Positions 1 through 34,482 of a DNA stretch of 52,651 bases are shown here, in pieces. The translations under genes and the position numbers were made by a program. The first letter of the stretch is position 1; each line of letters begins with the position of its first letter. Source of the stretch: an uncultured Bacillales bacterium (lineage in GTDB: Bacteria; Bacillota_I; Bacilli_A; RF39; UBA660); the NCBI GenBank assembly GCA_947168625.1, contig CAMVMQ010000002.1:1-52651 (forward strand). Reading direction: 5' to 3'. Under the pieces are notes generated by a model. The model saw only the letters and a program-made list of their open reading frames with translations. It did not search any database and was not told the DNA's origin.

Positions 1-20
1 TTTCATATTATAATAGTCCT

Positions 21-1154
21 TTATTTTTTTATGATTGGTTTCTTTTGATATTCTCTTCTAGTAATATTATATCCAGTTAGGAGTGAGTATATTTTAGATA
101 TACGAAGTTCTATATCAAGAGTTAATGATAGATTCTTTTGATAATTAGTAATAATGGGTATGTCTATTTCTTTTTTTATTTTGCTTATATAATCCCTTCC
201 TTTGGAATTAAATCCTAATAATCTTATGTAATCTATGCTAATAAGAGATGCTTCCTCTTTAGTAAAATTTGTTAAAATATGCAAAAGCATTCGAGATATT
301 TTGTTATAAGTATATCTTTTTGTTTTAATTTTAGTAATTAATTCATCATAAGATGAAACTGTATTTATTTCTTTTATCAAACGATTTTCGATGCCTTCAT
401 CAACTGTTTGATACTTATTTAGATTTTTATCTTCTACTAATATTTTATATTTAAGGTAATTGAAACTATTATTTATACCCGTTTTTAATAATATTGATGA
501 TTGATATGGAATATATGGCGAAATATCTTCTTCTTTCTTTAACATTTTTCGAATATGTGATGCTGAAGTTACATTATCTTTAATATCTTCTCCATGATAT
601 GATGTCTTTCTTTGGATATTTAATAATTCGATTGGTAAGGAATCAGCAATTATTTTTTTTATGTAAGATAATGCTAAAAGATCATTTGGTGTACTTATTT
701 CATGGCCTGTGAGGTCAATTAATGCCTTATTTAATGCAGTTGCATAGTTTAATCCGGTCTTTAGATATTTTTGAACAAGATGATTGTACTTATCATTATT
801 TATTTGGATTTCTGCTGATTTTTTTATTTTATCTATTGATTCTGATTCAGTACCAAAAACTAATGTATCTATTTTTAATTTTTCTAGAATAGTTATGGCA
901 CCGTCAGCGAAAATATCTGCTCCTTGTGTTGAATAGACAAATGGAAGTTCTATAGCTATATCTAATCCATTATCTAGGGCTATTTTTACCTTATCCCATT
1001 TATTTAATATGGAAATATCCCCTCTTTGAGTAAAAGAAGATGATATTACTCCAATGATAATACTATCTGGGTATTTTTTCCTTATTTCGTTTATTTGATA
1101 TAAATGACCATTATGAAATGGGTTATATTCTGCTATTAATCCTATTACGTGCAT
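21..1154 (-). CDS. tmcAL: tRNA(Met) cytidine acetate ligase-like nucleotidyltransferase (UPF0348/YlbM family)
   Basis: ORF track 21..1214. The conserved N-terminus starts at the internal Met (MHVIGLIAEYNPFHNGH, an HxGH-type nucleotidyltransferase motif), so the start is moved to ATG 1154. Length of about 377 aa fits the family. Confidence 0.75.
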   Translation of the reverse strand: MHVIGLIAEYNPFHNGHLYQINEIRKKYPDSIIIGVISSSFTQRGDISILNKWDKVKIALDNGLDIAIELPFVYSTQGADIFADGAITILEKLKIDTLVFGTESESIDKIKKSAEIQINNDKYNHLVQKYLKTGLNYATALNKALIDLTGHEISTPNDLLALSYIKKIIADSLPIELLNIQRKTSYHGEDIKDNVTSASHIRKMLKKEEDISPYIPYQSSILLKTGINNSFNYLKYKILVEDKNLNKYQTVDEGIENRLIKEINTVSSYDELITKIKTKRYTYNKISRMLLHILTNFTKEEASLISIDYIRLLGFNSKGRDYISKIKKEIDIPIITNYQKNLSLTLDIELRISKIYSLLTGYNITRREYQKKPIIKK

Positions 1155-1250
1155 TATTATCACCGATAATATAATATCATATTTAGAGCTTTTTTGCATT
1201 GATTTTTTAAGCATTTTATATTATATTTAATATTGTATTAGGAAGTGTGT

Positions 1251-1862
1251 ATGGTAGTTAATAATAAATGGTATAAAGATTATATTGAAGGTGTTGATAT
1301 TAGTAGCACTAATTATTTAAATTTTACAAATGAAGAACTATTAAATTTTTATAGAACTAATTATTATGATATTTATGATGGAGGATTAGTTTCCTCTTAT
1401 GAAGATTCAATTGGATGGCTATCTCCGATTGGAATGTACTTTTTAAATTTTGAAAAAATGGTTGGAATGAAATATGTTTTAGGTATTGCTGATAATAGTA
1501 TTAATAAAAAAACTATTGTATCTGCTTTATGTTATATTGATGATTATATTCTATTTCCTGAACAAATTAAGTATTTGACATATTTATCTACGGTTGAGAC
1601 TAATTATTTTTTTAGAGGTATGGGTCTTCATAAGCAATTGATTGATAATTCATATCAATTTATACCTAAGGACCAAAATATTTTAGTCAGTGAACTATCT
1701 AAATTAGGAATAAAATATCATATCGATATTTTATTAGAAAAGATATATCGTAGTAATGGTTTTAAGATGGATATTAGGTCAGATACTGATTGTTTTAATG
1801 AAGAAAGTTATTTTAATTTTCTTAGAAAAAAGGGAATTGTAAGAGAAAGAACAAAGGATTGA
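1251..1862 (+). CDS. hypothetical protein, possibly GNAT-fold acyltransferase-like
   Basis: ORF 1245..1862. AGGAAG lies 5 nt before ATG 1251. The segment YLSTVETNYFFRGMGLHKQLI resembles GNAT motif A (R/Q-x-x-G-x-G/A). No other recognisable motif. Confidence 0.45.
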   Translation: MVVNNKWYKDYIEGVDISSTNYLNFTNEELLNFYRTNYYDIYDGGLVSSYEDSIGWLSPIGMYFLNFEKMVGMKYVLGIADNSINKKTIVSALCYIDDYILFPEQIKYLTYLSTVETNYFFRGMGLHKQLIDNSYQFIPKDQNILVSELSKLGIKYHIDILLEKIYRSNGFKMDIRSDTDCFNEESYFNFLRKKGIVRERTKD

Positions 1863-1919
1863 TTTGATATTTTATTTTAATGATGATATAATATAAATGT
1901 AGTTTGAGGTGAGTGAAGA

Positions 1920-3944
1920 TTGAAAAAAGGGTTGAATAAAATTAAAAAAAAATTTAAAAAAATTGAACTAAGAAAGATGAAGAAAGAGGTTAGTATATAT
2001 ATTAGAACAAATATTCTTACTATTACTTTCTTAATTGGAAATATAATTAACGGGATTGTGCTTAGATATTTTACTGTAAAAAACTATTTCAATATTAAAC
2101 CAATTCTTGGAGATTTAGTTATTCTATTATTAATCGTGGCTTTTTGTTATTTACTAAAGCCTAAGCATCAGTTTAAATATTATATTGTTTGGTCTTGTAT
2201 TCTTTCTTTTATATGTATTGCAAACTGTGTTTATTATTCTAATTATCTATCATTTATATCTATTTCTTTACTTAAAACTTCTTCTCAACTAAGTGGATAT
2301 ACGGACGCCGTTACTAATATTTTAGAAGTTAAGGATTTTATTTTTTTAATATCAATTATTGTTCTTATTATTGTTCATAAAAAATTAAAGAAAAAAAAAT
2401 ATTATGAAAAAGTTAAAGAAATTGAAGTTGGCAAAATTCGTATATTTATTACATCGTGTCTTATTTTGTTTTTTGGATTAATTTTTTTATCTACTCTTAC
2501 AGGTAAAGATATAAGCAGGCTTAACAAACAATGGGATAGAAGATTTACTGTTATGGAATTTGGTGTATTTACTTATCAAGTAAATGATTTGGTGGCTACA
2601 ATAAGAACTAATATTACTAGTTTATCTAATTCTGATGAGGCATATAATGAATTTTTAAACTATTTTGAGGATAGAAAAGAAGAAAATTTAAAAACTAATA
2701 AATATACAAATATTTTTCAAGGAAAGAATGTGCTTGTTATTCATGCTGAGAGTTTTCAAGGTTTTACAATGAATCTTAAATTTAATGACCTAGAGCTTAC
2801 TCCTAATATGAATAAACTTGCTAAAGAAGGTTTATATTTTTCAAACTTTTACACAGAAGAAAGTATTGGTAATAGTAGTGATTCAGAGTTTAGTATTTTA
2901 ACTTCCCTTTTACCTGCATCTTCTGGTACTGTTTTTGTTAATTATTTTGATAGAAGTTATGTTTCAATAACTGATTTACTTCGTCAAAATGGCTATTATA
3001 CATTCAGTATGCATGGTAATGTAGCAAGTGCTTGGAATAGAAGAAATGCTTATAATTATCTTGGATATGATAAATTTTATGCTTATAAAGATTCTTATGA
3101 TATTGATGAGGTATTAGGCCTTGGATTATCTGATAAATCTTTCTTTAGACAATCTTCTGATATTATAAAGGAAATCGCAGAAAATAATGGCCATTATTAT
3201 GGAACTTTAATTATGCTTACTAATCATACACCTTTTAATTCTTTAATAGATACTGAATACTACGATGACTATCTTGTTGATATTAAAGGGGAATCAGAAA
3301 ATATTCCTTATCTAGAAGGAACAAAAATTGGTAACTTTTTAAAGTGCGTAAATTATGCAGATAGCGCTATTGGAGAATTTATAAATGAATTAGATGAAAG
3401 AGGATTACTTGATAATACGGTTATTGTTATTTATGGTGATCATGATAGTAAGATTAAAAAAAGTGAATTTGAAAAACTTTATTATAATGAGTATATTAAC
3501 GATGTTTCTATTGATGAAAGTAAAAAAATATCTGTTGTTGATAATTTTACATATGAGATAAATAGAAAAGTACCATTTATTATATGGACTAAGGATATGG
3601 CTGGTACTGAATATAATGAAGAGATTACTAAGGTAATGGGTATTATTGATGTTATGCCTACTTTAGGTAATATGCTTGGTGTAAGAAATGATTTTGCACT
3701 TGGGCATGATATATTTAATATTGATGAAAATATTGTTGTTTTTCCTGATGGTAGTTTTATTACTGATAAAGTCTACTACGATGGTTCTTCAGAAGAATAT
3801 AGACAGCTTGAAATTAATTCTGGAGTTAGCTTAGAATATTTAAAAAATAATTCAGATTATGCTAATAAAATATTATCAATATCAAGTAATATAATCACTC
3901 ATGATTTTATAAAAAAATATTTTAAAGAAAAAAATTTAAATTAA
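1920..3944 (+). CDS. ltaS: LTA synthase family protein (polytopic N-terminus plus extracellular sulfatase-like domain)
   Basis: About five N-terminal hydrophobic helices are followed by an alkaline-phosphatase/sulfatase-type domain (VLVIHAESFQGF, MLTNHTPF, VIVIYGDHD). GAGGTGA lies 8 nt before TTG 1920. Confidence 0.8.
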   Translation: MKKGLNKIKKKFKKIELRKMKKEVSIYIRTNILTITFLIGNIINGIVLRYFTVKNYFNIKPILGDLVILLLIVAFCYLLKPKHQFKYYIVWSCILSFICIANCVYYSNYLSFISISLLKTSSQLSGYTDAVTNILEVKDFIFLISIIVLIIVHKKLKKKKYYEKVKEIEVGKIRIFITSCLILFFGLIFLSTLTGKDISRLNKQWDRRFTVMEFGVFTYQVNDLVATIRTNITSLSNSDEAYNEFLNYFEDRKEENLKTNKYTNIFQGKNVLVIHAESFQGFTMNLKFNDLELTPNMNKLAKEGLYFSNFYTEESIGNSSDSEFSILTSLLPASSGTVFVNYFDRSYVSITDLLRQNGYYTFSMHGNVASAWNRRNAYNYLGYDKFYAYKDSYDIDEVLGLGLSDKSFFRQSSDIIKEIAENNGHYYGTLIMLTNHTPFNSLIDTEYYDDYLVDIKGESENIPYLEGTKIGNFLKCVNYADSAIGEFINELDERGLLDNTVIVIYGDHDSKIKKSEFEKLYYNEYINDVSIDESKKISVVDNFTYEINRKVPFIIWTKDMAGTEYNEEITKVMGIIDVMPTLGNMLGVRNDFALGHDIFNIDENIVVFPDGSFITDKVYYDGSSEEYRQLEINSGVSLEYLKNNSDYANKILSISSNIITHDFIKKYFKEKNLN

Positions 3945-3970
3945 ATGCCACTTTTTGTGGTATTTTTTTT
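3945..3970 (+). terminator. rho-independent terminator after ltaS
   Basis: Hairpin ATGCCAC-TTTTT-GTGGTAT followed by a run of 7 T. Confidence 0.6.
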
Positions 3971-4012
3971 AATTATTTGCTATAATTTATTTAGAATAGG
4001 AGTAGGGTTATT

Positions 4013-5773
4013 ATGTTTAAGGAGATTATTACAATAAGCAAGACTTATGCTATATGTAAAATTGATAATGTTATTAATGATGACTTACTTAATTTGAATG
4101 TTGTTTTTGAAGAAAATAACAAGAAAATTCTAGGTGAGATTGAGGAAATTATTTCTGATGAAGTTAAAATTACTTTTTTGGGAGAATTTCTTGAAGGAAA
4201 ATATTATGATGGTATTATTAGAAAACCAAGTACTAATTCAAAAATTAGAATTATTAATAATGAAGAATTAGCAGAATTAACAAACTATAATGATCCTATG
4301 GCAATGATACTTGGACTTTCTCCTTTGTATAATAATAGTCCTATTAAAATTAATATTAATGATATGTGGAGTAATCATATTGCGATTTTCGGAAATACTG
4401 GTTCTGGTAAGACATATGGTGTAGCTAGATTAATTCAAAATTTATTTAATATGAAAAATTTTATTCCTTTTAATAGTGTATTTTTTATTTTTAATAATAC
4501 TAATGAGTATGATAATGCATTTAAAGATATCGGAAACTATAATTTTAATTTTCATTATAAAATGTATACTAGTAATCTGGATAATGAAGCAAATATTTTG
4601 AAATTACCTCTATGGCTTTTATCAGTTGATGATTATGCTAATATTCTTGATATTACTGAGTATTCTCAAATTATGATTATTGAAAAAATGCTTATTTATG
4701 TATCTTTATTTTCAAGAAATGATGAAGAATCTAATAAATATAAAAATCATCTTATTGCAAAGGCTATTATATCCGTTATGTATTCAAATCAGGTTTCTGC
4801 AAGAATTCGAGACCAAATTTTCTCAATACTTACTTCTTGTCATACGAAGGAATTAAACTTAGATGTTGAGGTTGAAGGTGTTGGATATACTAGGGAATTT
4901 AGAAAATGCTTTGATATTGATAGTCAAGGACAATTTGTAGAAAGAGTTCTAATTACTGATTACATAAAGAGGTTTGTGTTAGAAAATTCTAATTTGAATG
5001 AAGAATATGTACCTACTTATTTTACTATTGATGATTTAGAAGTAGCTCTTAATTTTACTTTAATTAGTGAAGGACTTCTTTTAAATGAAAAATCTTATAA
5101 TGAGGCTTTAGCCTTAAAGGTTAAACTTCATATGATTGCTAATTCTTCTCTCCGCTCTTATTTCGATGTTAATAATTATTTTACTATAAATGAATACGTT
5201 TCTAATTTAATACTTGTTGATAACAATAAAAGAGCGCAGATTATAAATTTTGTGCTTGAGGGTATTGATGATAGATTTAGCAAGGCCATAGTTAAAGTTT
5301 TCAGTAGACTTTTGTTTAATTTTATTAAAGACCTACCTAATAGAGGTTCTATGCCTATACATATAATGCTTGAAGAGGCACATAGATATGTTCAAAAGGA
5401 TAAAGATAATGATATTCTTGGTTATAATATATTTGAAAGAATAGCTAAGGAAGGAAGAAAATTTGGTGTAATAATGGATTTAATTACCCAGAGACCAACA
5501 GAACTATCAGAAAATGTATTATCTCAGTGTAGTAACTTTCTTATTTTTAAGATTAACCATCCTAGTGATTTAGAATACATTGAGAAGATGGTTCCTAATG
5601 TTAGTTCAGATGTTATTGAAAAACAGAAATCTCTTCAATCAGGTACTTGTGTAGCTTTTGGAAAAATGATGAAAATACCTATGATTGTAAAAATGCAAAT
5701 ACCAAACCCTACTCCTTCTTCATCAAATGCCCAAATATTTGAAAAGTGGATGGTTCAGTGGAAAAATAGTTAG
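4013..5773 (+). CDS. HerA-like (DUF87/COG0433) P-loop ATPase
   Basis: N-terminal barrel-like region, Walker A IFGNTGSGKTYG, Walker B HIMLEEAHRYV, and the HerA-type segment GRKFGVIMDLITQRPTELSENVLSQCSNFLIFKINHPSD. Confidence 0.8.
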   Translation: MFKEIITISKTYAICKIDNVINDDLLNLNVVFEENNKKILGEIEEIISDEVKITFLGEFLEGKYYDGIIRKPSTNSKIRIINNEELAELTNYNDPMAMILGLSPLYNNSPIKININDMWSNHIAIFGNTGSGKTYGVARLIQNLFNMKNFIPFNSVFFIFNNTNEYDNAFKDIGNYNFNFHYKMYTSNLDNEANILKLPLWLLSVDDYANILDITEYSQIMIIEKMLIYVSLFSRNDEESNKYKNHLIAKAIISVMYSNQVSARIRDQIFSILTSCHTKELNLDVEVEGVGYTREFRKCFDIDSQGQFVERVLITDYIKRFVLENSNLNEEYVPTYFTIDDLEVALNFTLISEGLLLNEKSYNEALALKVKLHMIANSSLRSYFDVNNYFTINEYVSNLILVDNNKRAQIINFVLEGIDDRFSKAIVKVFSRLLFNFIKDLPNRGSMPIHIMLEEAHRYVQKDKDNDILGYNIFERIAKEGRKFGVIMDLITQRPTELSENVLSQCSNFLIFKINHPSDLEYIEKMVPNVSSDVIEKQKSLQSGTCVAFGKMMKIPMIVKMQIPNPTPSSSNAQIFEKWMVQWKNS

Positions 5774-5774
5774 A

Positions 5775-5801
5775 AAAAAGCCTTATAAAAATGGCTTTTT
5801 T
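5775..5801 (+). terminator. rho-independent terminator after the HerA-like gene
   Basis: AAAAAGCC-loop-GGCTTTTT hairpin with a T tail directly after stop codon 5771..5773. Confidence 0.6.
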
Positions 5802-5806
5802 ATTAT

Positions 5807-5938
5807 TTATCAACTTTATCAACATGGCTGTGGAAAAAAATAATAAACAACTGTTGAAAGAAAAAAAAACTAATATGTTGATATGTCGGACAATTGCTTA
5901 TAATATAATGATTTAAATTGTTGATATATTGTTGATAA
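5807..5938. promoter_or_regulatory. oriC upstream half: DnaA-box cluster upstream of dnaA
   Basis: 9-mers close to TTATCCACA: TTATCAACT 5807, TTATCAACA 5816, TGTGGAAAA 5829, TGTTGATAT 5876, TGTTGATAT 5919, TGTTGATAA 5930. They lie in non-coding DNA immediately 5' of dnaA. Confidence 0.7.
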
Positions 5939-6038
5939 ATTGTTAAAATACTTGTTTATAAAAAAATAGTACTGGACAAATTAATTTTTTGCGATATAAT
6001 AAAGTTAAATGAAATCTTGAGGTAGGGAGGTTTTGCTC

Positions 6039-7400
6039 ATGAATACAGAAGTTCTTTGGAATAATTTTCTTGATAAAATAAAAGAACGCATATCCCCTTT
6101 ATCTTATGATACATGGTTTAAAGATACTAAGCTACATAGTATTGATAATGGATTAGCTACTATAATAGTTCCTATGGGACTTCATAAAAAGCATTTGGAA
6201 GAAAACTATTTAGACGACATTGAGGAAGTATTTAATGCAATTACGGGTACTAATTTTTCTTTCACTTTCAAATTAGAAAATGAACTGGATAATAAAGAAG
6301 CGTGTAATATTGATAATTTGTCAACAGAAACTGTTGGTGTACCTTTTCAAAGTAGTGTTTTAGCAAATCTGAATGATAAATATACTTTTGATAATTTTAT
6401 GGTTGGTGACTCTAATAGATTTGCCTTTACTGCTGCTAGAGCGGTAGCAGAAAAACCTGGTAAAGCATATAATCCACTATTTTTATATGGTAATAGTGGT
6501 CTTGGTAAAACACATTTAATGCATGCCATTGGAAATTATATAATAGAAAATTCCAATAAAAAAGTTTTATATGTATCCAGTGAACAATTTGTTAATGATT
6601 ATATTTATGCAGTTAGAAATAATGAGAAAAATAATTTTGAAAAAATTGATTTATTTAAGAGTAAATATCGTAATGTTGATGTTTTGATTATTGATGATAT
6701 TCAATTTTTAGGTTCTGCTACTAAAGGTCAAGAAGAATTTTTTCATACATTTAATGAATTACATGACTCTAATAAACAAATAATTATAGCTTCAGACAGA
6801 TCTGTTGATGATTTAAAGATGCTAGAAGATAGACTTAGAACCCGATTTAATTGGGGACTTACGGCCAATATAACTCCTCCAGATTTCGAGCTGAGGGTTA
6901 GTATTATTAAAAAGAAAATATCACATCAGGAATCTGCTAAAGATATTCCTATTGAAGTTATTGAATACATCGCTAATATTAATGATTCTGATGTAAGACA
7001 ACTTGAGGGAGCTATTACCAGGGTATTTGCTTATGCACTTATGATGAATAAGGGAATTGTTACTCTAGATATTGCTGTGGAAGCTTTAAAAGATCGAGTG
7101 AGTGAGAAGAGTGTCTTTAAGAATGATGTTCATCGAATACAAAGAATTGTTTGTGAATATTTTAAAATTGACATAGAAGAATTAAAGGGAAAAAAGAAAA
7201 GTAAAGATGTCAACTATCCTAGACAAATTGCTATATATTTGTGTAGAGAATTAACAAATGAATCTTTTCCTAAAATGGGGACCTATTTTGGTGGGAGAGA
7301 TCATTCTACAATTATTAGTGCTTACCAAAAAATTAAGAAAGATTTAAAGACTAATAATCAACTACAAACAGTTATCTCAGAATTAAAAAATAGAATATAG
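6039..7400 (+). CDS. dnaA: chromosomal replication initiator protein DnaA
   Basis: Walker A GNSGLGKTHL, IIDDIQFL box, C-terminal DNA-binding region (YPRQIAIYLCRELT, FGGRDHSTIISAYQKI). SD GGTAGGGAGG sits about 8 nt before ATG 6039. The ORF track TTG 6033 is less likely. Confidence 0.97.
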   Translation: MNTEVLWNNFLDKIKERISPLSYDTWFKDTKLHSIDNGLATIIVPMGLHKKHLEENYLDDIEEVFNAITGTNFSFTFKLENELDNKEACNIDNLSTETVGVPFQSSVLANLNDKYTFDNFMVGDSNRFAFTAARAVAEKPGKAYNPLFLYGNSGLGKTHLMHAIGNYIIENSNKKVLYVSSEQFVNDYIYAVRNNEKNNFEKIDLFKSKYRNVDVLIIDDIQFLGSATKGQEEFFHTFNELHDSNKQIIIASDRSVDDLKMLEDRLRTRFNWGLTANITPPDFELRVSIIKKKISHQESAKDIPIEVIEYIANINDSDVRQLEGAITRVFAYALMMNKGIVTLDIAVEALKDRVSEKSVFKNDVHRIQRIVCEYFKIDIEELKGKKKSKDVNYPRQIAIYLCRELTNESFPKMGTYFGGRDHSTIISAYQKIKKDLKTNNQLQTVISELKNRI

Positions 7401-7513
7401 TGGATAAAAATGTAAATATCCACAGGTGTTGTTGATAAAAAAATGGTGTAAAATAAGACTTTACTTAAGATTTACACACTATCAACAGTATAATAATAAT
7501 AATTAATAAAAAA
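7399..7513. promoter_or_regulatory. oriC downstream half: DnaA boxes plus AT-rich putative unwinding region
   Basis: AGTGGATAA 7399, ATATCCACA 7416, TGTTGATAA 7430, CTATCAACA 7479. These are followed by GTATAATAATAATAATTAATAAAAAA, which contains a (TAA)4 run. Position between dnaA and dnaN matches the Bacillus incC. Confidence 0.65.
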
Positions 7514-8747: not shown

Positions 8748-9209
8748 ATGCAAGATTATATTTTGAATACAGATGTGTTATGTTTTACTCAGGATGTTGA
8801 TAATGATAAAAATATTTTGGTTATTGAAAAGAAAAATAAAAATGTTATTAAAATGGATTGCTTTAAATTTTTAAAAAGAAGTTGTAGTTACTATGGTCAT
8901 TCATATAAAATGCAGAGACAATTTGTTATCGACATTTTCAATTATTATATAAAAACACCTATTATAGTGTCTGAGTATGATATGATTATATTCTTTCCTA
9001 CAGCTAGTCCTAAATCTAAGGAATGTATATGGATTTCTTATAATAATGTCGAGAGATATGTAAAAGAAGATAATTATACTAAAATTTATTTTAAAGGTGG
9101 AAAAATTCTAAATATTAGTACTTCATATAGTACTATCGATCATCAGATTACAAAATGTATTAGGATTGAGAAATTTTTAAATTCAATTAGAGTAAAAAAT
9201 TATAGCTAA
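8748..9209 (+). CDS. ComK-family (competence transcription factor-like) protein, C-terminally short
   Basis: It aligns by eye to the B. subtilis ComK core: RSCSYYGHSY vs RSCRFFGSSY, KTPIIVS vs KPPIMVD, IIFFPTASPKSKECIWIS vs IFLFPTLSSTRPQCGWIS, and a SY..Q motif. Strong SD GGGGGGAGG upstream. Confidence 0.65.
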   Translation: MQDYILNTDVLCFTQDVDNDKNILVIEKKNKNVIKMDCFKFLKRSCSYYGHSYKMQRQFVIDIFNYYIKTPIIVSEYDMIIFFPTASPKSKECIWISYNNVERYVKEDNYTKIYFKGGKILNISTSYSTIDHQITKCIRIEKFLNSIRVKNYS

Positions 9210-12406: not shown

Positions 12407-14932
12407 ATGGAAGAAAATAATGGAAATAAAGATTATGATGAAAATTTAGAAAAAGTTGAAGTTTCAAGTGATTTTAATGGATATTTTCATGAAAGAGATA
12501 GTTTGTCTGAAAATAATATTGTTGATGAAGTTAAAACCTCCTTTTTGGAATATTCAGTTAGTGTTATTAAATCAAGGGCTTTACCTGACCTTCGTGACGG
12601 TTTAAAACCGGTTCATCGTAGAATATTATGGTCAATGTATGAAAGTGGTTATACTCCTGACAAACCACATAGAAAATCTGCTAAAACTGTTGGTGAGGTT
12701 ATGGGTAATTATCATCCACATGGTGATAGTTCAATATATGAAGCTATGGTTAGAATGGCTCAGGATTTTAGTCAGAGATATATGCTAATTGATGGACATG
12801 GTAATTTTGGCAATATTGAGGGTGATGGAGCTGCCGCTATGCGTTATACTGAGTCTAGATTATCTAAACTTTCTCTTGAGCTTCTTCGTGATATTAATAA
12901 AGAAACTGTTGATATGGAAGATAATTTTGATGCTACGAGAAAGGAACCTTCAGTATTACCGAGTAGATTTCCTAATATATTAGTTAATGGTACAATGGGA
13001 ATTGCTGTAGGTATGGCTACTAATATACCTCCTCATAATTTAGGTGAAGTAATAGATGGATGTGTTGCCTATATTGATAATCCAGATATTGATACGTTAG
13101 GTCTTATGAAATATATTAAAGGTCCTGATTTTCCTACTGGTGGCGTTATTTTAGGTAATTCTGGTATTAGGAAAGCCTATGATACTGGTCGTGGTACAAT
13201 TACAATAAGAAGTAGGGCGCAAATTGAAGAAGAGGGAAATCATAATAATATTGTAATAACTGAGGTACCATATGGTGTTAATACTATGGAACTTAAAAAT
13301 AAGGTTGCGGAACTTGTTCATAATAAAATTATTGATGGTATTTCTGATTATCATACAGATTTAAAAAATGGTGTAAAGATTACTATTTCATTAAAGAGAG
13401 ATGCTAATGCTCAAGTTGTTTTAAATAACTTATTTAAGCATACAAATTTTCAAATATCTTACGGTATTATATTCTTAATGTTAGACGGTCTTACTCCTAA
13501 GACTTTAGGTCTTAAAGATATTATTGCAAAGTATATTGATCATCAAAAAGAAGTTATAATACGTAGAACTAGATTTGATCTTGCTAAGGCTGAAAAAAGA
13601 GTTCATATATTAGAAGGATATAAGATTGCACTTGATAATATTGACGAAGTAATTAAAATTATAAAGAATGCTGAAAGTGATGTTGAAGCTAGAACTAAAT
13701 TAATGTCAAGATTTTCTTTGACGGAAATTCAATCTGATGCTATTTTGGAATTAAAATTACGTCGTTTAACTGGATTAGAGAGAGATAAGATTGAATCTGA
13801 ACTTTCTGAACTTCTTAAAACTATTGAAGAATTAAAGGCTATCCTTGGTGATACGCAGAAGGTTCTTAATATTATCAAAAATGAGATGCTAGAAATCAAA
13901 GATAAATATGCTGACGAAAGAAGAACTTCTATTGATATGACCGCTATTGATTATATTGATGATGAATCTCTTATTCCTGTTGAAAATAGTGTTATTACTC
14001 TAACAAACAGAGGTTATATAAAGAGAATGTCTTCAGATGTTTATAGAGCTCAAAATCGTGGAGGTATGGGAATTAAGGGAATGTCTACTAATGAAGAAGA
14101 TTTTGTTGAGCATTTAATTAATTCTACAACTCATGACTACATTTTGATGTTTACTAATAAAGGTAAAGTCTACCGTATTAAAGGGTATGAAATACCTGAG
14201 TTTAACAGACAGTCAAAAGGTCTACCAATTATTAATTTATTATCCTTAGAAAAAGATGAAAAAGTCACTTCATTATTGAAAATATCAGGTAATGAAGAAA
14301 GTAAATATCTTGTTTTTGCAACTAAAAATGGTCTTATTAAAAGAACTGATATTTCGGAATTTGATAGTATAAGAAATAATGGAAAAAAATTCATTACACT
14401 AAAAGACAATGATGAACTTGTATCTGTTAAAAAGACGACTGGAAATAATGAGATAATGCTTGCAGGTTCAAATGGTAAAATGGTACGTTTTTATGAGAAA
14501 ACAATTAGAGTAATGGGAAGAGGAGCTTCTGGTGTTAAAGGTATCAACCTTGATGGTGGTTTTTTAATTGGTATGGAAACTGTTAATAATGATGAAAATA
14601 TTCTTGTTGTTACTGAAAAAGGATATGGTAAAAAAACTCCTGTTAATGAATATCGTTTAACCAATAGAGGCGGTAAAGGTGTTATGACATTAAATGTAAC
14701 TGATAAGAATGGCAAGCTTGTTGCATTTAAATCGGTAAATGATTTAGAGGATTTAATGATCGTAACTGATTCAGGTATTATTATCCGTATGGGTATTGAT
14801 AAGATTTCTACTATGAGTAGGGTTACACAGGGTGTTAGACTTATAAATTTAAAGGATGATAGCTTAGTAAGTTCAGTTGCAATTGTTGATAAGCAAATCG
14901 ATGAAGATAAGTCTGATAATGAGGAGAGTTAA
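12407..14932 (+). CDS. gyrA: DNA gyrase subunit A
   Basis: [32 protein letters not shown], catalytic-Tyr region [12 protein letters not shown]-terminal beta-pinwheel repeats. Confidence 0.98.
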
Positions 14933-14950: not shown

Positions 14951-14966
14951 TATTTCCCGGGAAATA
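14951..14966. promoter_or_regulatory. Noc-binding-site (NBS)-type palindrome TATTTCCCGGGAAATA
   Basis: Exact match to the published B. subtilis NBS palindrome (core ATTTCCCGGGAAAT). CCCGGG is very rare in this AT-rich DNA. Confidence 0.7.
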
Positions 14967-15131
14967 TTTTTGTTACACAAACATTTGTTTGTGTAATTCT
15001 TTCTTTGCAATTAATTGCTTTATTTTGTATTTTATTGTATATTTTTATTGATACAACATTACTTTATGGAATCAAGTCAGGGATGGAAATCAGCAGCTTT
15101 AACATATAAGTTTTGTGTGTATCTTTTTTTA

Positions 15132-15147
15132 TGTTCCACGTGGAACA
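15132..15147. promoter_or_regulatory. parS-type site 1 (TGTTCCACGTGGAACA)
   Basis: Perfect 16-bp palindrome (18 bp with flanking A/T). 15/16 match to parS consensus TGTTNCACGTGAAACA. Confidence 0.8.
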
Positions 15148-15234
15148 TCGTTTGATTTCAATATGGTTATTATTTATTAAAATATTTTGTTGTTGATAGA
15201 GTTAGTTTCAATTTATAATTTTTTATTTAATTAA

Positions 15235-15250
15235 TGTTCCACGTGGAACA
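15235..15250. promoter_or_regulatory. parS-type site 2 (TGTTCCACGTGGAACA)
   Basis: Identical 18-mer ATGTTCCACGTGGAACAT. Confidence 0.8.
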
Positions 15251-15389
15251 TATACCGTAATTTAATTTATTCAATGTTTTTTTCTTGTTGATAGGTTATA
15301 AATTTACAATTTTATTATTAAAACAAATTAGATGTAAATCATACTATATATAAAGTAAATATTGGAATTAGGTTTTTATCTATTACTCA

Positions 15390-15405
15390 TGTTTCACGTG
15401 GAACA
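15390..15405. promoter_or_regulatory. parS-type site 3 (TGTTTCACGTGGAACA)
   Basis: One half-site is TGTTTCAC, as in the canonical parS. It is embedded in the 34-bp near-palindrome TATTACTCATGTTTCACGTGGAACATGAGTAATA (15381..15414). Confidence 0.8.
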
Positions 15406-15490
15406 TGAGTAATACTTTTATTTATCATTATTTTAATTAGTTAAATTTTTAATTTGTTGATAACTTTATATTTATATATTTATTTTATTA

Positions 15491-15506
15491 TGTTCCACGT
15501 GGAACG
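15491..15506. promoter_or_regulatory. parS-type site 4 (TGTTCCACGTGGAACG)
   Basis: One outer mismatch. It is embedded in the 28-bp near-palindrome TTATTATGTTCCACGTGGAACGTAATAA. Confidence 0.7.
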
Positions 15507-15633
15507 TAATAAAAAATTATGTATTTAATTGTATTTTAATAGTTGTGTTGTAATGTTGAATAATTAATTATTAGTATAGTGAAGCTTTTTTAAATTATAT
15601 TGATAGATTTTTTTTATTATGTTACTATTTTCA

Positions 15634-15649
15634 TGTTCCACGTGGAACA
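15634..15649. promoter_or_regulatory. parS-type site 5 (TGTTCCACGTGGAACA)
   Basis: Centre of the perfect 34-bp palindrome CTATTTTCATGTTCCACGTGGAACATGAAAATAG (15625..15658), ending at the tadA SD. Position verified against the ORF-track frame. Confidence 0.8.
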
Positions 15650-15669
15650 TGAAAATAGGTGGTTATTTT

Positions 15670-16092
15670 ATGAATGAATTTTTTTTAAATGAGGCTTTTA
15701 AAGAAGCTAAAAAATCTTTTGATTTAGATGAAATTCCTGTTGGATGTGTTATTGTTTATAAAAATCATATTATTTCTAGAGCACATAATTGCAAAGAATT
15801 AAAAAACAATGCTATCATGCATGCTGAAATTTTAGCTGTTGATAGAGCATGTAAGAAACTTAAATCATGGAGATTGGATGATTGTATACTTTATACTACT
15901 CTAGAGCCTTGTTTAATGTGCACTGGTGCAATTTTGGAATGTCGTATTAAAAATGTATATTATGGTACTAGTAGTAAAAGCAAACAAATGTTTGATATTA
16001 AAGCTCTCGATAATATTAATTTTTATAATATGAAAAATGTTGATTGTTCTAATATTTTATCTGATTTTTTTCGAATTAAACGCCTAAAATAA
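15670..16092 (+). CDS. tadA: tRNA-specific adenosine deaminase
   Basis: CMP/dCMP deaminase zinc motifs HAEILAV and PCLMCTGA. AGGTGG SD precedes ATG 15670. The ORF-track start 15619 would read through parS site 5. Confidence 0.9.
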   Translation: MNEFFLNEAFKEAKKSFDLDEIPVGCVIVYKNHIISRAHNCKELKNNAIMHAEILAVDRACKKLKSWRLDDCILYTTLEPCLMCTGAILECRIKNVYYGTSSKSKQMFDIKALDNINFYNMKNVDCSNILSDFFRIKRLK

Positions 16093-16217: not shown

Positions 16218-17882
16218 ATGGGTTATTTAGCGTTGTATCGTAAATATCGTCCAATATGTTTTGATGATGTTTATGGTCAAGAAGATATTGTAACTGTTAT
16301 AAAAAATGCTATTATTAATAATAAGATATCTCACGCTTATTTGTTTTCTGGTCCTAGGGGAACTGGTAAGACTACTATTGCAAAGATTATTGCGCGTCTT
16401 GTTAATTGTGAACACCTTGAAAATGGTAATCCATGTGGAAAGTGTTTTAGTTGCTTAAATTTTCTTAATAGTAGCGACATTGTTGAAATTGATGCAGCTT
16501 CTAACAATGGTGTTGATGAAATTAGAGAAATAAGAGATAAGATTAATCTTGTTCCTACTACTTCTAAGTATAAAGTATACATTATTGATGAGGTACATAT
16601 GCTTACTACACAGGCTTTTAATGCTTTGCTTAAAACATTAGAGGAGCCTCCATCTCATGTTATTTTTATCTTAGCTACCACTGAACCTCATAAAATTCCT
16701 TTGACTATTGCTTCAAGATGTCAGAAATTTAGATTTACTCGGATTGATGATTGCAAAATTGTTGATAGACTTAAGAAAATTTCGGTATCTGAAAATATTA
16801 AGTGCGAGGATGATGCTTTTTTTGAAATTGCAAGACTTTCTGATGGATGTATGAGAGATGCAATTAATTTGCTTGATCAGCTTGCTGCTTATGCTAATGG
16901 TAATATTACTTTAGATGATATATATAAGGTAAATGGTTCTGTTTCTTATTTAGATATTAATGATTTGATTAAGGCTATTTCTGTTAATGACAAAATTAAA
17001 ATTATTGATTTTGTTGATAAATTTATTAGTGATGGTAAAGAAATTAGTAAGTTTATTGAAGAATTTATTATTTATATAAAGGATATTATTTTATTTAAAA
17101 ATGCTAATTATTTATCAAGTGTTTCCTTGAAAAATGATTGTATACGAGAAATATCTGATGTTTTATCTATTGATTATTTTTATGATTTGATTGTTGTGCT
17201 TAATGATACACTACATTCAATTAAAACATCTTCTCATGGCTCTATTTTATTTATGATATCTATCTTAAAATATTCTAGTAAGATTTTTAATAATGATATT
17301 AGCAGAGAAAGTCCTGAAGTAAATAATGCAATTATTTCCCGGGAAATAATTTATAATTCTATTAATGAAAATAAAATTAAAAATACTGGTTATCTTGTGG
17401 ATGATAATAATGATTTTTCTTCAGTAATTATTGATGTTAAGGGAAGAATAAATAATACTTTAGCTACGGCAAAAAAGAATATATTAAGCAATGTTAAGGA
17501 AAAATGGAAAACTTTAGAAAATTATTTATGTGATGACTCTTTTTCAATGGTTGCTGGGTTACTTAAGGATTGTACTGTTGTTGCGGCATCTGAGGATTAT
17601 ATTATTATTTCTAATAATCTTACTTCAGTTGTTGATAGAATTAATAATAATATAGAAAATGTTGAAACATTATTAGAAAAAGTTATTGGTTATAAAATTC
17701 TTGTTGTTTCGGTCAGCAGTGACAATTGGAATTTTATTAAGAAAAAGTATGTTGATGATATTAAAAAAGGTATTAAGTATAGTATTATTGAATTAGATGA
17801 GAATAAAAATGTTAACAATAATAGTTCACCTGTTGATGAGTTAAAAAAACTCGTTGGTGATAGTGTTATTGAATTTAAGTAA
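16218..17882 (+). CDS. dnaX: DNA polymerase III subunit gamma/tau
   Basis: YRKYRP, Walker A GPRGTGKTT, zinc module CGKCFSC, IIDEVHMLT, SRCQKF. AAAGGTGGG SD precedes ATG 16218. Confidence 0.95.
   Translation: MGYLALYRKYRPICFDDVYGQEDIVTVIKNAIINNKISHAYLFSGPRGTGKTTIAKIIARLVNCEHLENGNPCGKCFSCLNFLNSSDIVEIDAASNNGVDEIREIRDKINLVPTTSKYKVYIIDEVHMLTTQAFNALLKTLEEPPSHVIFILATTEPHKIPLTIASRCQKFRFTRIDDCKIVDRLKKISVSENIKCEDDAFFEIARLSDGCMRDAINLLDQLAAYANGNITLDDIYKVNGSVSYLDINDLIKAISVNDKIKIIDFVDKFISDGKEISKFIEEFIIYIKDIILFKNANYLSSVSLKNDCIREISDVLSIDYFYDLIVVLNDTLHSIKTSSHGSILFMISILKYSSKIFNNDISRESPEVNNAIISREIIYNSINENKIKNTGYLVDDNNDFSSVIIDVKGRINNTLATAKKNILSNVKEKWKTLENYLCDDSFSMVAGLLKDCTVVAASEDYIIISNNLTSVVDRINNNIENVETLLEKVIGYKILVVSVSSDNWNFIKKKYVDDIKKGIKYSIIELDENKNVNNNSSPVDELKKLVGDSVIEFK
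17333..17348. promoter_or_regulatory. second NBS-type palindrome TATTTCCCGGGAAATA, inside dnaX
   Basis: A 19-nt identity (AATTATTTCCCGGGAAATA) with the copy at 14949..14966. It lies in the poorly conserved linker of DnaX (codons ..NAIISREIIYN..). Confidence 0.7.
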
Positions 17883-27971: not shown

Positions 27972-28502
27972 TTGAAGACTACTGGTGTTATTAGAAGAAT
28001 TGATGAGCTAGGTAGAATTGTTATTCCTAAAGAGATTAGAAAGAATCTTAGAATTAAGAATGGTGAAAGTTTAGAAGTATTTGTAGAAGGAGATTCTATT
28101 GTATTAAAAAAATATTCTCAGTTAGAGAATATAGAGAGTGTATCTGTTGATTATGTAGAAGCTTTTAATCAGATTATTAAACATAATATTATTGTTACGG
28201 ATAGAGATAAAGTTATTGCAGTAGCAGGTCCTTTAAAGAAGAAATATTTAGGTAAAGAAATTAATGAATTTACTGAGAGAAGTATTGATAGGAGAGACTC
28301 TTTTTCGGAAAAGCAAAAGAAGATGTTTAGTGTGATTAAGGATGAAGAAGATAATGGTTATTATACTTTTACATCGATTGTGGATAATGGGGATGCTATT
28401 GGTAGTGTTATTATTATTAGTACGGATACTCCTATTACAGATGTTGAAGATAAGATGGGAATTATTTTATCTAAATTACTTAGTAAACAATTCATAGATT
28501 AA
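27972..28502 (+). CDS. spoVT: stage V sporulation protein T (AbrB/SpoVT N-domain plus C-terminal sensor-like domain)
   Basis: TGVIRRIDELGRIVIPKEIRKNLRI swapped-hairpin motif. 176 aa, as for SpoVT. Neighbour of mfd as in Bacillus. AAAGGTGA SD precedes TTG 27972. Confidence 0.85.
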   Translation: MKTTGVIRRIDELGRIVIPKEIRKNLRIKNGESLEVFVEGDSIVLKKYSQLENIESVSVDYVEAFNQIIKHNIIVTDRDKVIAVAGPLKKKYLGKEINEFTERSIDRRDSFSEKQKKMFSVIKDEEDNGYYTFTSIVDNGDAIGSVIIISTDTPITDVEDKMGIILSKLLSKQFID

Positions 28503-32864: not shown

Positions 32865-33785
32865 ATGAGAAAACTAGTTATTTATACTTTAATAATTGTT
32901 GTTATTCCTTTTTTCGTTGTAATATTTTTTGATATTAATAAAAGAGAAGTAGTCAAGCTTAACTATGTATCTAATAAGATTATTAGAGTTAAGAGAGAAG
33001 ATAGTGGTGAAATTATTTATTTGCCATTAGAAGAGTATTTGGTTGGTGTTTTGGCTGGAGAAATGCCTATATATTTTGAAAAAGAGGCTTTTAAAGCACA
33101 GGCTGTAGCTGCTCGTAGTTATGCAATGAAGAAAATGGAATATAATAAGGATTTAGATTATGATGTTGTTGATACTGTAATTAATCAAGTTTATTTAGAT
33201 AATAATTATCTTAAACAAGCATGGGATGATAAATATACTATTAATATTAATAAATTGAGAGAAGTTGTTAACGAAACCCAAAATGAATGTTTAACTTATA
33301 ATAATGAAATTATTGATGCTTTATTTTTTTCTACAAGTAATGGATATACGGAATCTTCTTCACTAGTTTTTAATAATGATATTCCATATTTGGTAAGCGT
33401 TAAGTCTTCTTGGGATGAAAAAACTTCAAGTGCTTTTAGAAGTAGGCTTTCTTTTGACATAAAAGATTTTTATAGCATGATAGGTCTTAAATATAGTGAT
33501 AAGTTGGTTATAAAAAATATTAAAAGAAGTAGCACTAATAGGGTAATTAGTTTATCCATTAATGATAAGGAGTTTAGTGGAAGAACTTTATATGAAAAAC
33601 TTGGTCTTAAATCTACTGATTTTACGATATCACAGGACAATGATATGGTTATCTTTGATATGATTGGTTATGGACATGGAGTTGGTATGAGTCAGTATGG
33701 AGCAGAAGGTATGGCACTTGATGGTTATAGTTATATTGATATTCTAAAGTATTATTATACTGGCACTGAATTAAAAAAAATTTAA
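32865..33785 (+). CDS. spoIID: stage II sporulation protein D (SpoIID/LytB domain)
   Basis: KAQAVAARSYA, ALFFSTSNGYTE and GHGVGMSQYGA motifs, with an N-terminal anchor. Confidence 0.85.
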   Translation: MRKLVIYTLIIVVIPFFVVIFFDINKREVVKLNYVSNKIIRVKREDSGEIIYLPLEEYLVGVLAGEMPIYFEKEAFKAQAVAARSYAMKKMEYNKDLDYDVVDTVINQVYLDNNYLKQAWDDKYTININKLREVVNETQNECLTYNNEIIDALFFSTSNGYTESSSLVFNNDIPYLVSVKSSWDEKTSSAFRSRLSFDIKDFYSMIGLKYSDKLVIKNIKRSSTNRVISLSINDKEFSGRTLYEKLGLKSTDFTISQDNDMVIFDMIGYGHGVGMSQYGAEGMALDGYSYIDILKYYYTGTELKKI

Positions 33786-33840: not shown

Positions 33841-34482
33841 ATGTTTAATAGAAGAATAAAGAAAATGATGATACCAGTATTATATGGTATATGTGTTTTG
33901 GGATTTGCTTTAACTATGTATTTTGCAGGTAAAATATCTTATCGTTATTTATTTAATAAGAATAAGGATTTGGAGTATGTTGATGGAGAAATAACTGATT
34001 CTATTGATAGAAACGTTCCTGTTGTTAGTACTAGTTCTGCTATTGGAAGACCTTATTTGGATAATAATGTTTCTCTTGGCAAATCTTTTTATGATTATAA
34101 AGGTGATGAAGAAACTCAAGAAAAATCGATTATTTTATATGAGAATACATACATGCAAAATTCTGGGGATGATTATGTTTCTGAAAATGTTTTTGATATC
34201 ATTAGTATTTTAGATGGTACTGTTACAATGGTAAAAGACGATAATATTCTTGGTAAAACAGTTGAAATCAAACATAGTAATGATCTTATTAGTGTTTATC
34301 AGAGCCTTTCTGAGGTTAGTGTTAATGAGGGAGATGAAGTAATACTAGGACAGATTATTGGCAAAAGTGGATATTCTGATATAAATAAAGATTTAGGAAA
34401 TCATTTACATTTTGAGCTTTATTATAAAGGTGCTATTGTTAACCCTGAAGAGTATTATAATAAAGATATTAATGAATTATAG
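33841..34482 (+). CDS. M23 (LytM) family peptidase, SpoIIQ-like membrane-anchored
   Basis: N-terminal TM helix. M23 motifs HSNDLISVYQSL and GNHLHFELYYKG (HxH intact). Position next to spoIID. Confidence 0.75.
   Translation: MFNRRIKKMMIPVLYGICVLGFALTMYFAGKISYRYLFNKNKDLEYVDGEITDSIDRNVPVVSTSSAIGRPYLDNNVSLGKSFYDYKGDEETQEKSIILYENTYMQNSGDDYVSENVFDIISILDGTVTMVKDDNILGKTVEIKHSNDLISVYQSLSEVSVNEGDEVILGQIIGKSGYSDINKDLGNHLHFELYYKGAIVNPEEYYNKDINEL

Follow-up and report, generated by a model that had tools for sequence, protein, structure and literature searches.

We describe here an array of five 16-bp palindromes located in the spacer between gyrA and tadA in a 52,651-bp stretch of DNA (contig CAMVMQ010000002.1, referred to throughout as the window) from an uncultured Bacillales bacterium. 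Judged from their sequence and their conservation in relatives, the palindromes are in all likelihood ParB-binding parS centromere sites of the chromosome in a small-genome lineage of uncultured gut Bacilli. The array adjoins the dnaA-dnaN-recF-gyrB-gyrA cluster, and we infer that it is an origin-proximal centromere which would serve as a hub for ParB and SMC. Since the core of the sites is the near-universal ParB site and the preferences of ParB are conserved (PMC7383237), a multi-site chromosomal centromere is the simplest reading of the locus.

A motif scan of the window identified five copies of the TGTTCCACGTGGAACA family between positions 15132 and 15649, three of them exact and two with a single change (Table 1). 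An earlier, sequence-only reading of the same DNA had reported five such palindromes in about 520 bp (three exact, one with a variant half-site and one with an outer A-to-G change), had taken them for the parS palindrome and had considered them beyond chance, and all of this could be reproduced. Four of the five sites show no mismatch to the symmetric parS consensus TGTTNCACGTGNAACA and the remaining one shows a single mismatch (0.01-0.06 expected by chance). For the five-copy array itself the expectation by chance is 0.01, and none of 100 shuffles reached five copies. A sixth copy could not be found in the 52,651-bp window even when 3 mismatches were allowed. Start-to-start spacings of the sites are irregular (103, 155, 101 and 143 bp) and the DNA between them is AT-rich and mutually unrelated. 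The outer change in site 4 is more precisely a strain-level polymorphism, as the site is perfect in L001, another assembly of this species. Apart from this site, the L001 spacer differs from that of the window by one 50-bp patch; in this patch (15418-15465, between sites 3 and 4) ~15 positions differ, which could be due to local recombination or to an assembly difference.

Relatives were collected by a GyrA-based scan with one genome per species, which gave 80 loci with a GyrA identity of 71-89%. All of them come from metagenome-assembled genomes (MAGs) of uncultured gut Bacilli, labelled Bacilli, 'Tenericutes', Clostridium sp. CAG:1193, Candidatus Scybalousia or Erysipelotrichaceae. Spacer statistics refer to the 68 loci in which the gyrA-tadA spacer is complete (median length 830 bp, range 204-2868). 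At least two parS sites are present in the spacer of 58 of these 68 loci (72-89% GyrA identity), with a median of 5 and a maximum of 11 sites. This comparison of the spacer in related genomes, which the sequence-only reading had proposed, yielded 309 parS in 61.8 kb of spacer as compared to 15 in 1.1 Mb outside it, several of the latter being located in the next gap, between tadA and dnaX. Nearly all of the 80 loci carry parS directly 3' of gyrA and are otherwise free of it over ~18 kb; a single copy was found away from the gyrA-dnaX region in these 18-kb loci. Alignment of 349 distinct sites defines the conserved unit as 18 bp, aTGTT(T/C)CACGTG(A/G)AACAt, with ~1.1-2.0 bits per core position and an abrupt fall to ~0.3 bits in the flanks. 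While this 18-bp core is almost invariant, the DNA between the sites cannot be aligned across the clade. In the comparison of the window to L004 (88% GyrA identity), the five sites correspond one-to-one and the inter-site DNA has diverged, with many indels. On the strength of this sequence conservation, the array consists of protein-binding sites under strong purifying selection, kept at a fixed syntenic locus in the whole clade, as would be expected for loading sites of ParB.

Tandem duplication alters the copy number at the locus. The period is constant in L023 (five copies at 106 bp), L036 (eight copies at ~39 bp), L035 (117 bp), L033 (~70 bp) and L007 (60 bp), and the array of L064 contains duplicated two-site blocks. 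Across the clade the spacing ranges from 33 to 572 bp and the number of sites from 0 to 11 at the one syntenic locus, the spacers of L041, L043 and L063 being without any parS.

Table 1. Positions of the parS sites and of other features in the window (module positions refer to the relative named).
Feature	Position	Strand	Remarks
parS site 1	15132-15147	.	exact TGTTCCACGTGGAACA; positional orthologue of the first site of L004
parS site 2	15235-15250	.	exact TGTTCCACGTGGAACA
parS site 3	15390-15405	.	TGTTTCACGTGGAACA, with TGTTTCAC half-site; within 34-bp near-perfect palindrome 15381-15414
parS site 4	15491-15506	.	TGTTCCACGTGGAACG, outer A-to-G; within 32-bp palindrome 15483-15514
parS site 5	15634-15649	.	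exact TGTTCCACGTGGAACA; within perfect 34-bp palindrome 15625-15658
Noc-binding site (NBS), exact 16-bp consensus TATTTCCCGGGAAATA	14951-14966	.	0 mismatches; 19 nt past the gyrA stop codon
Second exact NBS TATTTCCCGGGAAATA	17333-17348	.	inside dnaX
Terminator-like hairpin with T-rich tail	14972-14997	+	11-bp stem, then TCTTTCTTTG; from folding
Signal recognition particle (SRP) RNA gene, small (ffs)	15045-15131	+	Rfam RF00169, 49.4 bits (gathering score 40), E 8e-8
TGTTGATA motif	15191-15198; further starts 15286, 15455	+	DnaA-box variant (TTATCAACA on the opposite strand) or -35-like
Putative tadA promoter	15600-15628	+	TTGATA, 17 nt, TG-extended TACTAT; consensus match only
tadA (tRNA adenosine deaminase)	15670-16092	+	first gene downstream, followed by dnaX-ebfC-recR
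NBS-box-parS modules	L016 3376-3417, 3893-3934, 4428-4470		also in L009, L011, L012, L015, L018, L021, L026

Several observations weigh against the assignment of the array as a ParB-bound centromere. Genes for ParB, ParA, Noc or SMC could not be found in the window (NCBIfam and Pfam searches of the sizeable non-overlapping open reading frames, ORFs), within 8 kb on each side of gyrA in the 80 relatives (phmmer search of all ORFs), or in relatives up to ~22 kb upstream of dnaA and 10 kb past ychF. Only degenerate sites are present at this position in L040, L067, L042 and L061. Over more than 20 kb upstream of dnaA the genes, polC and polA included, run in its direction, and the GC skew tracks the coding strand. 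Finally, some of the sites lie in extended palindromes with co-varying flanks, which ParB binding does not explain. The lineages with only degenerate sites may have lost the array or changed the specificity of their ParB; examples of the sequences found downstream of gyrA are TGTTTCGCGTGAAACA in L042 and L061 and TGTTTCACATGAAACT in L067.

The phmmer query, a Bacillus subtilis Spo0J sequence, had no match among the ORFs of the window or of the 80 loci; it was sensitive, as it matched 120 ParB-family ORFs elsewhere, down to ~1e-75. The walks beyond the 80 loci used homologues of the nucleotidyltransferase at the left end, leading to polC, and homologues of YchF, leading 10 kb past ychF, and the search for ParB and Noc extends in total from ~-22 to +56 kb around dnaA. 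In a relative, Rce1-like, fpg, polA, ADP-ribosylglycohydrolase and polC genes occupy the ~16 kb further upstream. The sequence-only reading had looked to parA, parB and smc genes elsewhere in the genome for confirmation, and over this range none came to light. These 120 ParB-family loci came from a scan of metagenomes (GERRxRA, low-GC codons); none of them shares genes of >50% identity with the clade loci or could be linked to the lineage, and the one closest in tetranucleotide signature, L123, turned out to belong to Clostridioides difficile and was discarded. Of these metagenome loci, L098, L116, L138, L140, L165, L202 and L205 typically have 2-3 parS within ~50-360 bp, beside parAB. Small clusters are therefore common in other low-GC organisms, and it is the size and the location of the array described here which stand out. 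The conservation of their sites suggests that cognate ParB and Noc proteins are encoded in the clade.

The array had earlier been placed about 8 kb from oriC. The sole basis for this putative distance is the DnaA-box-like clusters that flank dnaA (5817-5937 and 7399-7487), the array being located 7.7 kb downstream of them; no switch in strand or skew was seen at dnaA. As a marker of the origin, GC skew is uninformative because it follows the coding strand. Owing to this and to the co-orientation of the genes, the true position of the origin is uncertain, and in gut bacteria the origin is not always at dnaA (PMC10197239). Upstream of dnaA (window 1-6000; L084 1-21134) we find polC, polA, fpg and Rce1-like, LtaS-like and HerA-like genes in the same orientation, with one nucleotidyltransferase as the sole exception, and the usual rpmH-rnpA-yidC-jag-mnmE-mnmG-rsmG-noc-soj-spo0J block is absent from this range.

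Palindromes at sites 3, 4 and 5 reach beyond the 16-mer, with arms of 17, 16 and 17 nt, respectively. The corresponding RNA stems of 15, 14 and 15 bp are predicted to be stable (-18.6, -15.1 and -21.2 kcal/mol; z -5.5 to -7, with -6.95 for site 3). Extension past the 16-mer by at least 5 bp is seen in ~25% of the clade sites as compared to ~0.5% of control positions. Complementarity of the flanks at +2 to +5 is 0.57-0.44 against 0.34-0.38 for shuffled partners (n=349). As the flanks vary in sequence from one site to the next, they covary and do not represent a longer recognition sequence. On the + strand sites 1, 3, 4 and 5 score as terminator-like, with tails that are only moderately T-rich; the region has five terminator-like matches where 0.1 are expected, and four of these are parS sites. 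Such features could mean that the palindromes are mainly nucleic-acid hairpins, whether transcription terminators or insulators in the ffs-tadA interval or a stabilising 5' stem-loop on the tadA-dnaX mRNA, and that their likeness to parS is secondary; the location of site 5 where the tadA mRNA is predicted to begin would fit this. We consider such an explanation improbable. For a hairpin, complementarity would suffice, yet the 18-bp core is nearly invariant among ~350 sites from 80 genomes and is that of the ParB consensus. Furthermore, sites 1 and 2 and ~75% of the clade sites are extended by less than 5 bp, up to 11 terminators would be senseless in an untranscribed gap, and T-rich tails are expected from the composition of the strand. 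Extended arms can also be built without selection through template-switch correction of quasi-palindromes. Neutral correction of this type, or selection for an RNA or DNA hairpin, is a candidate cause of the extended arms.

Site 5 likely coincides with the start of tadA transcription. Its palindrome stops at the tadA ribosome-binding site, and both the -35 and the -10 of the putative tadA promoter are kept in L004. An extended -10 of the form TGnTAATAT is present in L002-L005, where it precedes the last parS by 5-6 nt. The distance from a parS to the tadA ATG is 24-56 nt in 23 loci (24-36 nt in 22 of them), and the parS ends just before the Shine-Dalgarno sequence. This placement hints that occupancy by ParB may be coupled to tadA-dnaX expression. 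L025, L029, L046, L048, L061, L062 and L070 have parS alone between the SRP RNA terminator and tadA.

Next to the array, on the gyrA side, lies an exact NBS, one of only two such copies of TATTTCCCGGGAAATA in the window. The other one, in dnaX, has counterparts at a similar depth (~1.07-1.19 kb into the gene) in at least 15 loci. parS and NBS are distinct 16-bp sites that differ at two positions per half-site, ParB and Noc keep their site preferences across species, and Noc proteins of NBS-type specificity have the residues Q/K/K/R (PMC7383237). Over the 68 loci, the density of exact ATTTCCCGGGAAAT is 1.12 per kb within the spacers and 0.047 per kb outside them, a 24-fold difference, and at least one NBS is present in the spacer of 34 loci. 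The spacer of L005 (10487-11416) has six NBS followed by eight parS, and in L008, L035, L038, L054 and L071 the two types of site are interleaved; NBS are also scattered inside genes of the relatives. For a G+C-rich 14-mer in DNA of ~27% G+C, the densities in the spacers and outside are both far above chance, implying that a Noc-type protein is present in the clade. The NBS beside our array and the NBS arrays of relatives suggest that Noc may load next to ParB, in the same gap.

A further motif, TGTTGATA, is six-fold over-represented in the window with 26 of its 29 copies on the + strand. Its copies are concentrated near dnaA, in the parS spacer and in further gaps between genes (28521/28534, 34519). 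The motif may represent a variant of the DnaA box or a -35 element, or simply be a word biased to one strand. We did not accept it as a firm DnaA box, in view of its general enrichment on the + strand, the -35-like TTGATA that it contains and the loss of a copy within the species (the one at 15455 is missing from L001). The spacer of the window has no consensus DnaA box TTATCCACA; one copy with 1 mismatch, TTATCAACA, is present at 15455. Several consensus-type boxes are found in the spacers of L016, L018, L078 and L064. T[TA][AT]TCCACA is located 0-8 nt upstream of parS in 13 loci (41 instances), TxTCCACAG lies 6-7 nt ahead of parS in L064, L068, L073 and L078, and a fixed NBS-AATT-box-parS module, spelled ATTTCCCGGGAAAT-AATT-(T)TATCCACA-TGTTTCACGTGAAACA, recurs in nine loci, where its 17 units lie in unrelated surroundings.

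These boxes, the three copies of TGTTGATA between the parS sites and the precedent of Caulobacter, where DnaA binds at the centromere (PMC6399470), raise the question whether the spacer is primarily a site of replication control, as a DnaA-box cluster or as part of the origin, with parS as a passenger. This appears a shade less probable still than the hairpin explanation. In addition to what is said above of TTATCCACA and TGTTGATA, genes have the same orientation on both sides of the spacer, the skew does not change across it, and boxes with at most 1 mismatch are merely ~1.8-fold denser in the arrays than outside. With the array taken as a centromere, it is possible, though we put it forward tentatively, that the gyrA-tadA gap is a composite hub of chromosome maintenance, where the loading sites of ParB alternate with, or are joined to, those of Noc and, in certain lineages, those of DnaA (TTATCCACA).

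The weakest explanation sees in the array a local amplification that is recent and selectively neutral, a repeat of dispersed or mobile type, or the operators of an unrelated tadA-dnaX repressor, and is very improbable: amplification does occur, as the perfectly periodic tandem units of some relatives attest, and the last site reaches into the promoter and 5' end of tadA, but the array keeps its position in the 58 genomes, its sites are orthologous amid diverged DNA, the copies are confined to one locus with non-homologous flanks and thus do not form a mobile element, and the motif is the near-universal ParB site, not a lineage-specific operator. Invariance of the core, fixed position and divergence of the inter-site DNA together exclude chance, a mobile repeat and an amplification that is both recent and neutral. 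The sequence-only reading had itself raised the alternative of a recent local amplification without a special role, and the relatives refute it.

In the window the gene order is HerA-like ATPase, dnaA (6033-7400), dnaN, a ComK-family gene, recF, gyrB, gyrA (12407-14932), the spacer, tadA, dnaX, ebfC, recR, holB, ricT and onward to mfd. The start of tadA is most likely the one given in Table 1, which is preceded by an AGGTGG ribosome-binding site and matches the start of a 140-aa tadA product in a database record; the first ATG in frame, at 15619, is the less likely start. A credible ORF could not be found in the gyrA-tadA spacer, and a coding or small-ORF explanation of the spacer was dropped. 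The earlier description of the spacer as non-coding holds for proteins and fails for RNA, since the SRP RNA gene is located there. Its closing helix and T-run stop one base short of parS site 1 in the predicted fold; SRP motifs share the spacer in at least 24 relatives, and no other RNA family reached the threshold in an Rfam scan of the window. The terminator-like hairpin downstream of gyrA is probably the gyrA terminator. The SRP RNA gene, the adjacent NBS, the location of site 5 on the promoter and 5' end of tadA and the extended palindromes are all features that the sequence-only reading did not contain. The ComK-family gene (8748-9209; Pfam PF06338, E 5.5e-26) lies between dnaN and recF and is kept in L001 and L084; in B. 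subtilis this position is occupied by a small S4-domain gene (yaaA). The window also carries the sporulation genes spoVT, spoIID and spoIIQ-like (27972-28502, 32865-33785 and 33841-34482), in a lineage which some database records label 'Tenericutes'.

Clamp loading, sliding and SMC recruitment by ParB are established biology. On this model, ParB dimers would bind each 16/18-bp site of the array, close as CTP-bound clamps and slide onto the flanking DNA. With five sites per 520 bp, the spacer would act as one high-flux ParB loading point, which would seed a single partition complex, mark the origin region and recruit SMC from one position. The terminators of gyrA and of the SRP RNA would shield the array from incoming transcription. 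ParB bound to site 5, at the promoter or 5' end of tadA-dnaX, may dampen the operon, and Noc may load beside ParB in the gyrA-tadA gap.

The array resembles the parS sites of B. subtilis Spo0J/ParB and S. pneumoniae ParB in the 16-bp palindrome TGTTNCACGTGNAACA, in the linkage to dnaA-gyrA and in the presence of several sites, and, as an expected role only, it would share with Bacillota parS the loading of ParB-CTP clamps and the recruitment of SMC. Strong parS of B. subtilis are mostly located inside genes. They extend over ~60 kb (PMC8357415), whereas here the five sites are found within 520 bp of one intergenic gap. Unlike the Bacillota examples, our array has a fixed position in a syntenic spacer, and parAB were not found nearby.

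The contrast drawn earlier with sites scattered singly around the origin was overstated, as clusters of parS are known in Myxococcus xanthus (22 parS; PMC3899335) and in Streptomyces, Corynebacterium glutamicum, Caulobacter crescentus and P. aeruginosa, the latter with parS1-4 (PMC7022226, PMC7333895, PMC5815017, PMC4368675). Cultured gut bacteria, including OMM12, also have several parS per 5-kb bin (PMC10197239), and P. aeruginosa ParB binds the GTTCCAC half-site form as well (PMC7022226). Multiple canonical parS near the origin are common to these clustered centromeres and to our array; the known clusters, however, span kilobases to tens of kb, while here about one site per 100-150 bp is found in a single non-coding gap. 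Known clusters are usually located beside or within parAB and neighbouring genes. Fast turnover of copy number by tandem duplication and adjacent or interleaved NBS further set the present arrays apart from them. In the F plasmid, sopC consists of tandem repeats which each bear an inverted repeat. An array of short palindromic sites for a partition protein is a likeness to sopC, and some relatives are strictly periodic (L036, L023). A plasmid-type tandem-repeat centromere was nevertheless rejected for the window, where sites of the chromosomal ParB type are irregularly spaced (101-155 bp) and separated by unrelated DNA, with no partition operon next to them.

The NBS are likewise of a known type, with exact 16-bp sites as in B. 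subtilis and S. aureus and scattered genic copies in relatives. Known NBS are scattered over the chromosome (PMC7383237, PMC4331003), whereas those of the clade are concentrated in the parS gap, and, unlike known NBS, they form arrays or fixed modules with a DnaA box and parS in relatives. A search of the literature gave no description of NBS or DnaA boxes co-located with parS arrays. The kind of element is thus already known; what is new is its extreme compaction, its fixed position away from parAB throughout an uncultured clade, its rapid, plasmid-like turnover and its co-location with NBS and, in some lineages, DnaA boxes.

Reviews still ask why bacteria have more than one parS site and why the sites are clustered (PMC7333895). 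Results from B. subtilis suggest that clustering of the strong parS limits collisions between SMC complexes (PMC8357415), and a single strong loading point, as proposed here, would fit this argument. With 0-11 sites at spacings of 33-572 bp, the clade offers a natural series for asking how the loading of ParB and the folding of the chromosome depend on the number and spacing of sites. ParB and its relative Noc both depend on CTP, nucleate on 16-bp sites, spread and must not cross-react (PMC7383237), and the side-by-side parS and NBS arrays would provide a direct test bed for how the two share DNA. The array also supplies a sharp sequence marker for locating the centromere region in MAGs of this gut lineage, which is an abundant one. 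The composite hub, if true, would be considerably more interesting than a parS array alone: it would unite a centromere, a nucleation site for membrane tethering and nucleoid occlusion and a DnaA-binding site in one short locus, which would grow and shrink in tandem like a plasmid centromere while self-templated hairpin correction keeps its palindromes perfect.

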